Notes: generated by a model from the letters alone, not told the origin. A DNA stretch of 64,000 bases from Escherichia coli (GCF_050920415.1 NZ_CP169309.1); one strand, 5' to 3'. Numbered from the stretch's first letter, positions 1,778 through 55,898 are shown. Numbers and translations: made by a program.

Positions 1778-3883
1778 TTAGTGCGCGCCTTTCGCCTGCG
1801 CCACGATCTCCTCGACATTTTCCGGCATTGGCTCATACGGCGTTTCTTTCGCCGTTGGCTTCGGCTCTTTCAATGCCGCCAGTGCCGTCTTAATCGAGAA
1901 CAGTGCCAGAACCACCACAACCACCATAAAGAAGATGGTTAATCCGGCATCCAGACGGTTGTTGAACACCAGTTGCGCCAGTTGTGACTCAGTATACTGC
2001 GACGGAATATTGCCGCTGTCGATCATTGCCTGGAACTTGTTAGCAATCGCCAGGAAACCGACTTTCGCATCCGGGCTAAACGCTTTCTGCCAGCCTGCGG
2101 TCAGGGTACAAATCAGCAGCCAGGCCGTTGGTACCAGCGCCACCCAGGCGTAACGTTGACGTTTCATCTTGAACAACACCACGGCACAGAGCATCAGCGC
2201 CATCCCTGCCAGCATCTGGTTGGCAATACCAAACAGCGGCCACAGAGTGTTAATACCGCCCAGCGGATCGACCACGCCCTGATGCAGAAAGTAACCCCAA
2301 GCCAGCACGCACAGCGCCGTTGCCAGCAGGTTAGCAGGCAGTGAATCGGTCCGTTTCAGGCCCGGAGAAACCACGCCCAGCAGATCCTGCAACATAAAGC
2401 GCGCAGCACGCGTACCCGCATCCACCGCCGTCAGAATAAACAGTGCTTCAAACAGAATGGCGAAGTGATACCAGAACGCCACATCCATCATGCCACCCAG
2501 CGCGCCGTGCAGAATGTAGGCCATCCCCACCGCCAGGGTCGGCGCACCGCCCGCACGGGAAATGATCGACTGTTCACCCACTTCGCTGGCAATCTGATTT
2601 AACGTATCTGGCGTAATGCTAAAGCCCCAGCTACTCACTACCTGCGCAGCAGATGCCACTACATCCGCCGTCCCCGCCGGAGCCAGCACCGCCATCGGAC
2701 TGTTCATCGCGAAGTACACGCCCGGATCGATGATACAGGCAGAAACCAGTGCCATAATCGCCACGAAGGATTCCATCAACATCCCACCGTAGCCGATAAA
2801 GCACGCCTGACCTTCGTTCGCCAGCATCTTCGGTGTGGTGCCGGAAGAGATCAGCGCATGGAAGCCAGACACCGCGCCACAGGCGATAGTAATAAACAGG
2901 AACGGGAACAGATTACCGGTCCATACCGGGCCAGTGCCATCTACAAACTTGGTCAGCGCAGGCATGGTCAGCGTCGGACGCATAATCAAAATGCCTACCG
3001 CCAGACCGACGATAGTCCCGATTTTCAGGAAGGTAGAGAGGTAGTCACGCGGAGCCAGCAGCAACCACACCGGCAGAACCGCCGCCACAAAACCGTAACC
3101 CACCAGCATCCAGGTCAGCTGCACGCCGGTAAAGTCAAAGTACGGTGCCCAAGTCGGGCTTTCTGCCACCCAGCCGCCAGAGATAATGGCGAAAATAAGG
3201 AATACCAGGCCAATCACCGACACTTCCCCAATGCGGCCTGGACGCAGATAGCGCAGGTAAATCCCCATGAACAGCGCCAGCGGAATGGTGAACGCAACGG
3301 TATACGTTCCCCACGGGCTATGAGTCAGGGCTTTCACCACGATCATCGCCAGTACTGCAAGGATAATGACCATGATCATAAAGCAGGCCACCAGCGCAAT
3401 CACCCCGGCGGTTGGCCCCATCTCTTCTTTAACCAGCTCGCCCAGCGAGCGACCGTCACGGCGCGTGGAAACAAACAGCACCATGAAATCCTGCACCGCA
3501 CCGGCGAGAACCACCCCGGCAAGTAGCCAGATCATCCCCGGTAGGTAGCCCATTTGCGCCGCCAGTACCGGCCCCACCAACGGGCCTGCTCCGGCAATGG
3601 CCGCAAAATGGTGACCGAACAGCACTTTCTTGTCCGTCGGCACATAGTCCAGCCCGTCGTTATGGCGCACCGCTGGCGTCATACGCGTCGGGTCAACCGC
3701 CAATACATTTTTGGCAATATAAAGACCATAAAAACGGTAAGCGATCAGATAGATACAGACCGACGCCACCACAATCCACAGCGCGTTGATCTGTTCCCCA
3801 CGATTTAAAGCAATGTATCCCAGAGCAAATGCTCCCATTACAGAGAGCACTGTCCAGACGAGGTATTTCCCTGATTTGTTCAT
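1778..3883 (-). CDS. cstA: carbon starvation protein A (peptide/pyruvate transporter CstA)
   Basis: 701-aa polytopic membrane ORF with the characteristic CstA N-terminus MNKSGKYLVWTVLSVMGAFALGYIALNRGEQINALWIVVASVCIYLIAYRFYG. Confidence 0.92.
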   Translation of the reverse strand: MNKSGKYLVWTVLSVMGAFALGYIALNRGEQINALWIVVASVCIYLIAYRFYGLYIAKNVLAVDPTRMTPAVRHNDGLDYVPTDKKVLFGHHFAAIAGAGPLVGPVLAAQMGYLPGMIWLLAGVVLAGAVQDFMVLFVSTRRDGRSLGELVKEEMGPTAGVIALVACFMIMVIILAVLAMIVVKALTHSPWGTYTVAFTIPLALFMGIYLRYLRPGRIGEVSVIGLVFLIFAIISGGWVAESPTWAPYFDFTGVQLTWMLVGYGFVAAVLPVWLLLAPRDYLSTFLKIGTIVGLAVGILIMRPTLTMPALTKFVDGTGPVWTGNLFPFLFITIACGAVSGFHALISSGTTPKMLANEGQACFIGYGGMLMESFVAIMALVSACIIDPGVYFAMNSPMAVLAPAGTADVVASAAQVVSSWGFSITPDTLNQIASEVGEQSIISRAGGAPTLAVGMAYILHGALGGMMDVAFWYHFAILFEALFILTAVDAGTRAARFMLQDLLGVVSPGLKRTDSLPANLLATALCVLAWGYFLHQGVVDPLGGINTLWPLFGIANQMLAGMALMLCAVVLFKMKRQRYAWVALVPTAWLLICTLTAGWQKAFSPDAKVGFLAIANKFQAMIDSGNIPSQYTESQLAQLVFNNRLDAGLTIFFMVVVVVLALFSIKTALAALKEPKPTAKETPYEPMPENVEEIVAQAKGAH

Positions 3884-51511: not shown

Positions 51512-52996
51512 ATGCGAAAAATAATCACTCATTTCAAAGTTGTTTTAACGTTACTTCTACCAGTAACCGTATCTGCCCAGCAGATACAGTGGCAATCCTG
51601 TATGGCCAGTCAATTCAACCACTGGTTTGGTGAGGAAAAACCGTCTCCTGACTTACTATGTGGTTATTTGTCTGTTCCATTAAAATATACAGACACAGGC
51701 GGAGATGCTTCTTATGAAAAAAAATCACAAGTCAAACTAGCGTTGACAAAATTGCCGGCAAAAAGCAAGCATAAAGGAAGTATCCTGATAATAAGTGGTG
51801 GTCCCGGGTTACCAGGCATAAATCCTTATATTAACTTTGACTGGCCAGTCACAAATCTTCGTGAGTCATGGGATATTATTGGATTTGATCCTCGAGGCGT
51901 CGGACAGTCCACTCCGACAATAAACTGCCGGCAATCAGATACAGAGACTCAGGAAAACATAACCGAAAAGCAACAAGTATTAAATAAAATTAATGCCTGT
52001 ATCCATAATACCGGAGCCGAAGTCATTCGCCATATCGGCTCTAACGAGGCTGTATACGATATTGATCGTATTAGGCAAGCCTTGGGGGATAAACAACTGA
52101 CAGCCGTGGCGTATTCGTATGGAACTCAAATTGCAGCCTTATATGCAGAACGTTTTCCCTACAACGTAAGATCTATCGTTCTTGATGGAGTCGTCGATAT
52201 CGATGACCTGGAGGACAACTTCACATGGCAACTCAAACAGGCACAGAGTTATCAGGAAACGTTTGATCGCTTTGCATCCTGGTGTGCGCGTACAAAAAGT
52301 TGCCCGCTTTCTTCAGACAGAGATAAGGCAATAACTCAGTTCCATGAGCTATTATCAAAATTACATCACAAACCTTTATTAGACAGTAAGGGAGAAAATA
52401 TATCTTCAGATGAACTCATATCATTAACAACAGACCTTCTGCTATGGCGTTCATCATGGCCAACCCTTGCAACTGCCATACGCCAGTTCTCTCAGGGGAT
52501 TGTCAGTAATGAAATTGAAACTGCGCTCAGTGCTCCGATAGCCTCAGAAGAGTCAAGCGATGCTTCGGGGGTAATCCTCTGTGTAGATCAGGGGGATGAG
52601 CAATTAACACCAGAAGAGCGAAAATCCCGAAAAGACGCTCTTGCGAATGCCTTCCCGGCTATTAACTTTGACAATGGACGTTCCGATTCACCTGATTTTT
52701 GTGAATTATGGCCAATACATAGCGACCTGAACAAAACTCGCCTGAAAAATACTGTTCTGCCCTCTGGTTTACTGTTTGTAGCACACAAATACGACCCAAC
52801 AACGCCCTGGATTAATGCCCGTAAGATGGCAGAGAAATTTTCCAGCCCGTTACTAACAATAAATGGTGATGGGCATACATTAGCTCTCACCGGAGTTAAT
52901 TTATGTGTAGATAAAGCAGTTGTACATTACCTGATCACTCCACAAAAAATAGAAAATATATACTGCCCAGGAAATTCTGAAGCAGAAATACAATAA
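51512..52996 (+). CDS. secreted alpha/beta-hydrolase, probable S33/TAP-like serine peptidase (prophage cargo)
   Basis: 494-aa ORF with signal peptide MRKIITHFKVVLTLLLPVTVSAQQ; oxyanion-hole-like GGPG, nucleophile-elbow AYSYGT, C-terminal GDGHT; family assignment by motif only. Confidence 0.6.
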   Translation: MRKIITHFKVVLTLLLPVTVSAQQIQWQSCMASQFNHWFGEEKPSPDLLCGYLSVPLKYTDTGGDASYEKKSQVKLALTKLPAKSKHKGSILIISGGPGLPGINPYINFDWPVTNLRESWDIIGFDPRGVGQSTPTINCRQSDTETQENITEKQQVLNKINACIHNTGAEVIRHIGSNEAVYDIDRIRQALGDKQLTAVAYSYGTQIAALYAERFPYNVRSIVLDGVVDIDDLEDNFTWQLKQAQSYQETFDRFASWCARTKSCPLSSDRDKAITQFHELLSKLHHKPLLDSKGENISSDELISLTTDLLLWRSSWPTLATAIRQFSQGIVSNEIETALSAPIASEESSDASGVILCVDQGDEQLTPEERKSRKDALANAFPAINFDNGRSDSPDFCELWPIHSDLNKTRLKNTVLPSGLLFVAHKYDPTTPWINARKMAEKFSSPLLTINGDGHTLALTGVNLCVDKAVVHYLITPQKIENIYCPGNSEAEIQ

Positions 52997-53179
52997 TTTC
53001 AAAATATTCCGCTATTTGCTCCCAATGCAAAACATATATTGCATTGGGAGCATATTCATATTTTTGTTATTATTGTATGAAATCGTCTCATGTACACGGT
53101 CCTTTTTTCGCCGAAAACTGATATTACTTTAATCAAAAGTTGACGTGCCAGATTCGAAGTAAATTTATAAAATATCAAA

Positions 53180-53485
53180 TCAATATACATTTTGCACCTT
53201 CGAGATAGTAATGACTGTTACTGTAACATGAGTTACAAACAGCTTCATACCCAGAGCTACTGATGTATCAACTCGATTCAACAATACCCGATATTTATTC
53301 CATGCCTCCAGCAACGATCTTTCTTCCTCCGTTGCGATTTCCAGATCTACAGCATCCTGCAGTGGCGCAATATACTCACTGAATTCCTGGATGTAGAACT
53401 GTGTGGTGACGGTCTTCCAGCCATTCGGCTCCTGCTGTATCGAAGCATACCAGGCTATTTCAATATCGCTATGCTGCGGCAGCAT
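53180..53485 (-). pseudogene. tail fibre assembly protein remnant (tfaX-like, C-terminal part only)
   Basis: Contains [38 protein letters not shown], near-identical to the C-terminus of the intact Tfa at 55996-56571; N-terminal part replaced by unrelated sequence. Confidence 0.7.
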
Positions 53486-53541
53486 TTAACCCCTTGTAAT
53501 TCATCGCCATAATTGATTTAATTCACAAATAAAACTATAAC

Positions 53542-54210
53542 ATGGTGAAATTAATGAAAAAAAACACAGATGATGGGGCTAAAATTTACACACCACTTAC
53601 CCTAAAGCTTTATGACTGGTGGGTTTTGGGAGTATCAAATCGGCTTGCATGGGGATGTCCTACAAAGGAACACCTTCTTCCACACTTTCTGGAACATTTA
53701 GGTAACAACCATCTGGATATTGGTGTTGGAACTGGGTTTTACCTTACTCACGTACCTGAGAGTAGTCTGATATCTTTAATGGATTTGAACGAAGCTAGCC
53801 TGAACGCGGCATCTACAAGGGCTGGGGAATCAAAAATTAAACATAAAATTAACCATGATGTTTTTGAACCTTATCCCGCGGCGTTACATGGTCAATTTGA
53901 TTCCATTTCCATGTTTTACCTTCTTCACTGCCTGCCTGGAAATATATCTACAAAAAGCTGTGTAATACGCAATGCGGCGCAGGCCTTAACTGACGATGGA
54001 ACTCTATACGGAGCCACAATTCTTGGCGATGGAGTTGTGCACAATAGCTTCGGTCAAAAACTGATGCGCATTTACAATCAGAAAGGCATCTTTTCAAACA
54101 CAAAAGATTCCGAAGAAGGCTTAACACATATACTCTCAGAGCATTTCGAGAATGTTAAAACCAAGGTTCAAGGTACTGTAGTAATGTTTTCCGCTTCAGG
54201 GAAAAAATAG
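53542..54210 (+). CDS. class I SAM-dependent methyltransferase (YbcY-like, apparently intact)
   Basis: 222-aa ORF with SAM-binding motif I LDIGVGTGFYL; start may be the internal MKKNT. Confidence 0.65.
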   Translation: MVKLMKKNTDDGAKIYTPLTLKLYDWWVLGVSNRLAWGCPTKEHLLPHFLEHLGNNHLDIGVGTGFYLTHVPESSLISLMDLNEASLNAASTRAGESKIKHKINHDVFEPYPAALHGQFDSISMFYLLHCLPGNISTKSCVIRNAAQALTDDGTLYGATILGDGVVHNSFGQKLMRIYNQKGIFSNTKDSEEGLTHILSEHFENVKTKVQGTVVMFSASGKK

Positions 54211-54575
54211 CATCCAACCGCAGCACGTTCTTGCATAAGGCGTGTCTGCGGTTTTTCAACTATTCAGATACATCACTCCCATCACATTCATTCCTCCGCA
54301 TCATAGGCATATAGGCTATATCACCTTGATATTTTTCTTCTTCAGATAAAAACTGTTATCTATGTATACTTTTAAACCCAATCCGTGTAGAGTCTCTGCA
54401 TAAGATAGTTTGCAGTTGCCACTTCAGCTTGCGCCATAAACCGCCTGATTTTTGCCGCCACCTGTTAGCATTCCTGTATACCTGAAACGACAATGTTTAT
54501 CTACGAACTTTAAGAACACCCAGGATAAAAATTGTCAACTATATCATATATAACACATTACTAATTCGAGGCTAT

Positions 54576-54689
54576 ATGAACAGCATACTGATAATCACTT
54601 CTCTCCTTATCATATTCAGCATTTTTAGTCATGCCCTAATAAAATTAGGGATTGGCATATCCAATAACCCAGACAAAACCGATGTATAA
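54576..54689 (+). CDS. candidate 37-aa hydrophobic small protein ([37 protein letters not shown])
   Basis: Short ORF below the track cut-off, read directly from the sequence; GAGG 4 nt upstream of the ATG; one predicted transmembrane helix; AT-rich cargo region. Confidence 0.25.
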
Positions 54690-54757
54690 GTCAACATATC
54701 CTGAATCAGACATACAATATCGCAATGAAAATCAATAATATTTTAAGGAATATCTTC

Positions 54758-54991
54758 ATGAAATCAAAAGACACCCTAAAGTGGTTCCCTGCGCAGCTTC
54801 CTGAAGTAAGAATTATCCTAGGGGATGCTGTAGTGGAAGTAGCAAAACAGGGAAGACCTATCAATACCAGAACATTGCTTGATTACATTGAAGGAAACAT
54901 AAAGAAAAAATCATGGCTGGATAACAAAGAATTATTACAAACAGCGATATCAGTTCTTAAAGACAACCAAAATTTAAATGGTAAAATGTAA
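54758..54991 (+). CDS. hypothetical small protein
   Basis: In-frame ATG at 54758 inside the 54725-54991 ORF with aagga Shine-Dalgarno about 8 nt upstream; 77 aa MKSKDTLKWFPAQLPEVRIILGDAVVEV. Confidence 0.4.
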   Translation: MKSKDTLKWFPAQLPEVRIILGDAVVEVAKQGRPINTRTLLDYIEGNIKKKSWLDNKELLQTAISVLKDNQNLNGKM

Positions 54992-55307
54992 TATAATAAA
55001 CTTACTTTTTTATCATTTTTCCACTTTAACAACATTTTGCTCCACTTTTCCACGATCAAACAACTTGAAATCTGGTTAAAATAACACGCAACACTATTCT
55101 TCTTCCTTGAGTCCGCCCGGAACTCGAAAAACAAACCGAGTTAAAGCCATTTTTCACAAAATCGATTTTGGGTCTCACCAAAATTACGGGGTTGCATACG
55201 CATTCGTTTATTTTCGAACGTGTACATACAAATATGCACAAAAATAATCAAAATTATTTTCTGAGATGCATTATGATATGAACACCAATTTCGTATAGAG
55301 TCTCACT

Positions 55308-55898
55308 ATGTCTCGAATTTTTGCTTACTGTCGGATATCAACGCTGGATCAGACCATCGAAAATCAACGCCGGGAAATCGAAAGTGCAGGTTTTAAAATC
55401 AAACCTCAGCAAATAATCGAAGAACACATTAGCGGCTCAGCAGCAACCAGTGAGCGTCCTGGTTTTAACCGGTTGCTTGCTCGCCTGAAATGTGGTGATC
55501 AATTGATTGTGACAAAACTGGATCGCCTTGGTTGTAATGCAATGGATATCAGGAAAACAGTGGAACAACTGACCGAAACAGGTATCAGAGTGCATTGCTT
55601 AGCATTGGGGGGCATTGACCTGACCAGTCCAACAGGAAAAATGATGATGCACGTAATTTCAGCAGTCGCTGAATTTGAACGAGACCTTTTACTTGAACGC
55701 ACTCATTCCGGGATAGTAAGAGCCCGCGGCGCAGGGAAACGTTTTGGTCGACCACCTGTGTTAAATGAAGAACAGAAACAGGTGGTATTCGAACGAATTA
55801 AGTCAGGTGTAAGTATAAGTGCCATTGCCCGGGAATTCAAAACCTCGCGGCAAACCATTTTAAGAGCCAAAGCAAAACTTCAGACACCTGACATATAA
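55308..55898 (+). CDS. serine recombinase (resolvase/invertase family, Pin/Hin-sized)
   Basis: 196-aa [32 protein letters not shown] with catalytic Ser in YCRISTLDQ and C-terminal helix-turn-helix ([18 protein letters not shown]). Confidence 0.8.

Follow-up and report, generated by a model that had tools for sequence, protein, structure and literature searches.

What is the 37-codon open reading frame (ORF) that begins at position 54576 of the 64,000-nucleotide stretch of Escherichia coli DNA analyzed here (NZ_CP169309.1, hereafter the window), and is its product a toxin? A first-pass annotation made from the sequence alone had described an unannotated hydrophobic peptide in prophage cargo DNA, with the architecture of type I toxins and other small membrane proteins. 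Translation of the window gave an ATG at 54576, a TAA at 54687-54689 and 37 codons on the plus strand; the coordinates, the translation and the GAGG placed 4 nt upstream in that annotation all matched the sequence. The AT-rich setting was confirmed as well, the bin 54500-54999 having the lowest GC content (0.328) of any 500 nt between 50000 and 60000. By itself, such an ORF could arise by chance: the interval 52000-58000 is overlapped by 84 ORFs of 25 aa or more. We took it as a real gene because of its conservation, its dN/dS ratio and published immunoblots. The features on which the argument relies are the following:

54216..54257, plus strand: terminator-like hairpin and U-run, 6 nt 3' of the SAM-methyltransferase stop (folding)
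54527..54995, plus strand: conserved mobile module, with ~49 nt of upstream DNA, ynfT, spacer and ydfK (homology to a Salmonella phage)
54568..54571, plus strand: ynfT Shine-Dalgarno (SD) motif GAGG, 4 nt 5' of the ATG, invariant in all aligned homologues
54576..54689, plus strand: ynfT/ynaM-family gene, 37 aa (identity to K-12 YnfT; NF041477, PF23676 and phrog_35882 matches; conservation; AlphaFold2)
54690..54757, plus strand: A/U-rich unstructured spacer, 68 nt (folding compared with shuffles)
54758..54991, plus strand: ydfK, 77 aa, cold-shock-induced (RefSeq, phrog_2718, PF27475)
55308..55898, plus strand: Pin-family serine DNA invertase, served by a separate promoter-like site (55221-55248)

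The window peptide is 100% identical to YnfT (b4748, Qin) and YnaM (b4744, Rac) of K-12. At the DNA level it is 1 nt off ynfT and 2 nt off ynaM, all of these differences being synonymous, and the SD together with the ORF equals that of K-12 ynfT apart from one synonymous base. The peptide matched Pfam PF23676 'YnaM-like' over its whole length (residues 1-37 of 37; 96.2 bits against a cut-off of 27), NCBIfam NF041477 'YnaM/YnfT family' (63.9 bits against a cut-off of 35) and phrog_35882 in PHROGs. The exact sequence is UniProt YNAM_ECOLI and also a RefSeq MULTISPECIES entry present on at least 999 contigs. In K-12 MG1655 the gene order is ynfT (b4748)-ydfK-pinQ-tfaQ-stfQ in Qin and ynaM (b4744)-ynaE-pinR-tfaR-stfR in Rac. 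The window repeats this arrangement, with the same 37 residues encoded 68 nt 5' of ydfK/ynaE, followed by pin, tfa and stf; as is characteristic of the YnaM/YnfT family, the ORF lies directly 5' of ydfK/ynaE in a prophage accessory region. A 2.5-kb block of the window (54202-56767) is common to both K-12 loci at ~98% identity. Unlike in K-12, the window prophage adjoins ompT, with SAM-methyltransferase and alpha/beta hydrolase genes upstream of the common block. The small ORF and the recombinase that had been noticed downstream are ydfK and the Pin-type serine recombinase at 55308-55898, and the prophage accessory setting upstream of ydfK and pin was borne out by annotation.

The ORF at 54576-54689 is a copy of the catalogued ynfT/ynaM gene, which occurs in lambdoid and other enterobacterial prophages; it is already known and not new. 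The description 'unannotated' was true only of a length-filtered track, and RefSeq carries a 'YnaM/YnfT family protein' at this position. We claim no discovery of a gene that stands in the K-12 reference annotation, UniProt, Pfam, NCBIfam and PHROGs and whose protein has been seen experimentally. The remaining interest lies in the function of a peptide that is under strong purifying selection, whose gene is found in roughly half of E. coli genomes (at up to three places each) and in many Salmonella, and which in prophages always accompanies a cold-shock gene. The present analysis adds a quantification of selection on the frame, the bounds of the module (54527-54995), the finding of distant ydfK genes without ynfT, and the rejection of the toxin and leader readings; these additions could guide the characterization of the ynfT-ydfK pair.

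With megablast, the locus (query 54300-55300) was found in 2,808 of 5,426 complete E. coli genomes, the features under the match being 'YnaM/YnfT family protein' and 'cold shock protein YdfK'. The narrower query 54520-54780 was matched at 3,401 places in 2,806 of the 5,426 E. coli genomes (~52%), with at most 3 per genome, and the RefSeq family annotation stood beside ydfK in 39/39 of the sampled full-length rows. An exhaustive phmmer search of 1.84 billion cluster representatives returned 4 matches to YnfT, 81-97% identical, a count to be read in the light of the under-calling of short ORFs in metagenomes. Against phages, tblastn aligned the polar tail only, as the low-complexity filter masks the hydrophobic half, and a DNA search was used instead. 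The range of the family covers Escherichia, Salmonella and their phages only.

Published expression data exist for both K-12 copies. The 37-aa sequence is given at both loci by VanOrsdel (2018; PMC6001520), where the Qin copy is named 'ynfQ', its coordinates (1632890-1633003) being those of today's ynfT. With chromosomal SPA tags, YnaM and YnfT were both among 36 small proteins seen by immunoblot in K-12, and both loci had been positive in an earlier tetracycline Ribo-seq screen (PMC6001520). In LB, the level of YnaM-SPA was above that of most newly detected small proteins (Weaver 2019; bioRxiv 10.1101/511675), and the tagged protein was present in growing and in stationary LB cultures (PMC6001520; bioRxiv 10.1101/511675). 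The ynaM start-codon peak was absent with retapamulin or Onc112 (bioRxiv 10.1101/511675). The K-12 genes ynaM and ynfT differ at 3 of 114 nt, and we infer that the initiation peak is missing because footprints from such near-identical copies map to several places and are discarded. As a C-terminal SPA tag could mask toxicity, the published expression data leave some room for a toxic activity. In a 2024 y-ome survey ynfT was still classed as uncharacterised, and a literature search with whole-word matching returned no reported function for YnfT/YnaM; no overexpression data for either were found in the literature search.

To follow the frame across relatives, loci were gathered with YdfK as the anchor from IMG/VR, phage records and genomes, and were kept if at least 200 nt of upstream DNA was available. 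Conservation of the frame had been named beforehand as the refutation test. The 37-codon ORF was intact in 24/24 loci in addition to the window, with its start 182-188 nt 5' of ydfK, and the gathered loci carried 8 nucleotide alleles encoding 6 peptides. All aligned homologues, the Salmonella-type one included, have the same GAGG-ATG spacing. Between the E. coli and Salmonella types, Nei-Gojobori counts were 13-16.5 for Sd and 7-12.5 for Nd, corresponding to a dS of ~0.9-1.9, a dN of ~0.09-0.16 and a dN/dS of 0.07-0.16 (about 0.1), with values of 2.55 and 0.99 for the shifted frames of the same DNA. In comparison with the commonest Salmonella allele, 14 of 22 differences fell at third codon positions. 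Residues 22-36 of YnfT were invariant save for L/V at 24, and the polar tail SNNPDKTD, itself invariant, was the most conserved part of the peptide. The dN/dS of ~0.1 in frame and the invariant tail indicate that the amino-acid sequence, the tail above all, is under purifying selection.

The hydrophobic helix with a polar tail described at the outset was supported by both approaches that we used. The Kyte-Doolittle 19-residue maximum was 2.52, over residues 4-22, and AlphaFold2, run on a seven-sequence alignment, predicted one helix over residues 2-30, with a pLDDT of 93-94 over residues 1-20 and of 58 in the tail. Hydropathy and model together fit a single-pass membrane peptide, with a predicted helix from about residue 4 to 22-28. 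AcrZ, MgrB, MgtS, SgrT, CydX and KdpF are single-helix inner-membrane modulators of less than 50 aa, stably expressed and non-toxic, and in AcrZ/MgrB-class proteins short conserved extramembrane segments could mediate partner binding. By general likeness rather than by computed comparison, YnfT resembles these six proteins in its size below 50 aa, its single predicted helix, its stable expression as a tagged protein, its probable lack of toxicity and its short conserved segment beyond the helix. Unlike the AcrZ/MgrB-class modulators, it is prophage-borne and confined to Escherichia, Salmonella and phages.

We then considered the DNA with which ynfT travels. Salmonella phage 118970_sal3 showed 79% identity to the window exactly over 54527-54995, with differing flanks, and this was the only stretch around the ORF common to E. 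coli-type and Salmonella-type loci. In 118970_sal3, the pair lies between the integrase region and a baseplate-J-type tail module, with no invertase. Homology that is bounded at 54527-54995 within differing flanks argues that ynfT-ydfK is a mobile two-gene unit. Viable phages with the module include 2H10, mEp460 and Tritos, the lambdoid 2H10 being 93% identical to the window over 54202-56767. The GC content of the module bin was 0.33, compared with 0.45-0.60 for the genes of the tail fibre. Known phage morons, such as lambda lom/bor, HK97 gp15 and cor, are expressed from the prophage and have membrane-associated products. The ynfT-ydfK pair is likewise accessory, next to tail-fibre genes, lower in GC than the structural genes and expressed from the prophage, with one predicted membrane product; unlike lom/bor-type morons, it comprises two genes, and its second product is a cytoplasmic cold-shock protein.

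Upstream of the pair, the hairpin at 54216-54253 had a minimum free energy (MFE) of -22.3 kcal/mol (z = -4.68; 0/200 shuffles as stable) and is followed by TTTTT at 54252-54256. The element at 54216-54257 is a credible intrinsic terminator that probably shields ynfT-ydfK from upstream transcription; the terminator scan overlooked it, probably through its 1-nt bulge. It also forms the left edge of the block common to the window and to K-12 Qin and Rac. An Rfam match to the Shigella sRNA CssrB on the minus strand at this hairpin (28.5 bits against a gathering threshold of 76) was explained by the terminator hairpin and set aside. With a terminator upstream, ynfT-ydfK would need its own promoter within 54265-54575. 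Neither the promoter scan nor manual reading gave a convincing sigma-70 promoter directly 5' of ynfT: the -35 of the nearest candidate is poor, and the scan match at 54341-54370 is not part of the DNA conserved with Salmonella. The promoters assigned to ydfK/ynaE by gSELEX are uninformative, lying ~700-1000 nt upstream, beyond the terminator hairpin and outside the common block. The motif GATAAAAAYTGT occurs three times 5' of ynfT (54345-54363, 54490-54502 and 54524-54542), twice in direct and once in inverted orientation, with the proximal copy kept in the Salmonella-type module; the repeats could be a candidate operator for some regulator or a chance occurrence in AT-rich DNA.

Between the two genes, the spacer (54690-54757) had an MFE of -3.7 kcal/mol in the E. 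coli type, less stable than its shuffles (z +1.4 to +1.6). Across types the MFE ranged from -3.7 to -7.1 kcal/mol, and the Salmonella-type z was about 0. The terminator scan found no terminator between ynfT and ydfK and none downstream of the module. This missing terminator and the co-inheritance of the two genes suggest that ynfT and ydfK may be co-transcribed.

The SD of ydfK (AAGGA, 54745-54749) lies inside the spacer, 8 nt 5' of the ATG at 54758. An 88-aa form of ydfK starting at ATG 54725, taken from a mechanical ORF list, was rejected, as RefSeq and published intact masses support the 77-aa start at 54758. YdfK and YnaE are known to be cold-induced, and their published intact masses of 8772.78 and 8745.75 Da fit the 77-aa form. 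A published information-theory scan predicted a cluster of Fur sites at ~+8 of the old ydfK start, which we estimate to be at ~54733 of the window (gaaaatcaataatatttt). The AlphaFold2 model of YdfK had a pLDDT of 79.6, and its best Foldseek match was E. coli YmgB/AriR (PDB 2oxl_A; TM 0.73 normalised to the target, probability 1.00, E 0.1); YdfK also gave a weak HMM match to the YcgZ family (E 0.011). From these model-based comparisons, YdfK may be a small regulator of the YmgB/YcgZ type, and the YnfT-YdfK pair might connect a peptide in the membrane with a small, cold-induced regulator of the connector type.

Distant YdfK (PF27475) relatives, 55-64% identical, were found in Enterobacter, on an Erwinia plasmid, at an E. 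coli variant locus and in Limnobaculum, outside prophage tail regions. Those of Enterobacter, Erwinia and the E. coli variant adjoin a gene of ~2,860 aa resembling GH94 glycosyl hydrolases/glucan synthases, and several of the distant loci have a divergent YnfU-like (PF23499) small gene upstream. Upstream of these relatives in Enterobacter, Erwinia, Limnobaculum and the E. coli variant, we observed no ynfT-like or other conserved hydrophobic ORF. The linkage is thus a feature of the prophage-borne subfamily alone, and any functional coupling between YnfT and YdfK cannot be a general requirement.

These observations bear on four other explanations of the ORF. That YnfT is a membrane-damaging type I toxin, its translation blocked by a cis- or divergently encoded antisense sRNA, is suggested by a small, hydrophobic, prophage-borne peptide with a single predicted helix, since Hok/Gef, Ldr, TisB, IbsC, ShoB, ZorO and PepG1/PepA1 are likewise small, have one hydrophobic helix and are often linked to mobile elements. 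The HMM resemblance to staphylococcal PepG1 was marginal (13.1 bits, E 0.055), far under the cut-off of 70 for that family; Hok, Ldr, TisB, Ibs and other toxin families gave no match at E<=1 in Pfam or NCBIfam, Pfam giving YnaM only. A convergent antisense sRNA promoter had been proposed as a check, and it came down to one minus-strand promoter-like site (TTGATT-16-TAAAAT, 54767-54740), which would yield an RNA antisense to ynfT. Because this site shares its DNA with the SD and start codon of ydfK, its conservation is uninformative, and promoter-like sites were not enriched (7 observed vs 4.8 +/- 2.0 expected). The K-12 annotation, which includes the known antitoxin sRNAs of that strain, lists no ncRNA at ynfT or ynaM; no Rfam match overlapped the ynfT ORF, and the terminator scan around the ORF found none on either strand. 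Sense and antisense folding were no better than shuffles (z -0.90 and -0.68), and the RNAalifold consensus of 227 columns reached -7.9 kcal/mol and showed one compensatory pair, that is, no conserved structure or covariation. The inverted repeats able to give a divergent antitoxin a complementary patch were short and weak, and nothing besides ynfT, the spacer, ydfK and ~49 nt of upstream DNA is contained in the block that E. coli and Salmonella loci have in common. The Salmonella type does not preserve a hairpin that lies within the ORF (CCCTAAT...ATTAGGG, 54634-54650) and looks incidental. Unlike Hok/Ldr-type toxins, ynfT comes with no antitoxin RNA, structured or long processed leader, or similarity to a toxin family. 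Its product carries a conserved acidic-polar tail, the most conserved part of the peptide, and is readily detected in unstressed cells: tagged YnaM/YnfT was fairly abundant in ordinary LB cultures, unlike tightly repressed type I toxins. With no antisense RNA signal, terminator, conserved RNA structure or toxin-family similarity found, the type I toxin reading was not upheld and a toxin of this kind is highly improbable; the evidence favours the other half of the initial description, a small membrane protein.

A leader peptide or uORF, whose translation would act only in cis on the transcription, stability or translation of ydfK and whose product would have no task, is very unlikely. Such a role would suit an ORF that is always 68-74 nt 5' of ydfK, on the same strand and with no intervening terminator, the more so as the downstream ydfK is cold-induced and cold-shock mRNAs typically have long regulatory leaders. 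A short UCCU in the spacer could also pair with the ydfK SD (AGGA), as RNAalifold suggested, but folding predicted this anti-SD hairpin in no clade, and shuffled sequences were more structured than the spacer. RNAalifold and spacer folding gave no conserved alternative structures, covariation or SD-sequestering hairpin at ynfT-ydfK. The amino-acid sequence itself is constrained (dN/dS ~0.1, invariant tail), the peptide accumulates stably as a tagged protein, and ydfK homologues at 55-64% identity manage without any upstream ynfT-like ORF. Somewhat different is the idea of a superinfection-exclusion or anti-phage membrane peptide that blocks DNA entry or an inner-membrane receptor component, as other small products of morons beside tail-fibre genes do, which we regard as unlikely. 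It agrees with the accessory position beside tail-fibre, tfa and pin genes in lambdoid phages, and also in baseplate-J-type phages, with the low GC and autonomy of a module present in viable temperate phages, and with the expression of YnfT/YnaM in lysogens without induction. A precedent is the cryptic-prophage small protein DicB, which protects against phages via inner-membrane proteins (PMC6832061). The Pfam, NCBIfam and PHROGs matches of YnfT, however, carry no defence or exclusion annotation, and exclusion leaves the constant partner, a cytoplasmic cold-shock protein, unexplained. The last alternative is that AT-rich intergenic DNA happens to contain an open frame with no coding function, and open frames of such length are indeed common here, as counted above. 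This explanation is refuted by a frame intact in 24/24 loci across ~21% DNA divergence, by changes concentrated at third positions, by a dN/dS of ~0.1 in the ynfT frame only, by the conserved SD and by the immunoblot-detected protein.

Neither a pore-forming toxin nor a purely regulatory uORF seems a good description of YnfT. In our judgment it is highly probable that this copy of ynfT/ynaM is translated into a single-pass inner-membrane peptide, forms the first cistron of a ynfT-ydfK moron and likely acts as a non-toxic modulator. YnfT would insert in the inner membrane by one helix, made up of residues ~4 to 22-28, and would use its invariant tail SNNPDKTD, acidic and polar, as the specific interaction surface. 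Its gene would come first in a self-contained, AT-rich moron of two genes, insulated upstream by the terminator hairpin and driven by its own promoter somewhere in 54265-54575, and ydfK would be translated independently from its own SD across the unstructured spacer. In the lysogen, YnfT may serve as a non-toxic, membrane-resident accessory or modulator, like other bacterial small membrane proteins. A more specific proposal, which we consider doubtful, is that the two products are a functional cold-responsive pair of temperate phages. YnfT would then be a membrane anchor or sensor acting via its invariant tail, and YdfK a YmgB/AriR- or YcgZ-like cytoplasmic connector that, at low temperature, reprograms host signalling (e.g. 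Rcs-type) or shields the lysogen (e.g. by superinfection exclusion); ynfT itself would be of recent origin, either born in the ydfK leader or taken up into it, and this in the phage-borne lineage alone.

Several other elements were observed around the module. The promoter-like site of pin has the hexamers TGTACA-16-AATAAT, and the same are listed for pinQ and pinR. At 51512-54210, between ompT and the block common with K-12, a tfa remnant lies between two genes, one for an alpha/beta hydrolase of 494 aa that looks secreted and the other for a class I SAM-dependent methyltransferase of 222 aa; the two are extra cargo absent from the Qin and Rac ends. Rfam IS009 was matched on the minus strand at 56030-56228 (226.7 bits), inside the tail-fibre assembly gene, and a second, degraded copy was detected at 53259-53462, also on the minus strand (107.7 bits against a gathering threshold of 117), in the upstream tfa pseudogene remnant. 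This IS009 pair marks what is left of an earlier tail-fibre module, lying between ompT and the present end of the prophage. Finally, the 988-aa tail-fibre protein encoded at 56571-59537 on the minus strand contains about three near-identical tandem repeats of ~46 aa, together with long Ala/Ser/Thr-rich low-complexity stretches.
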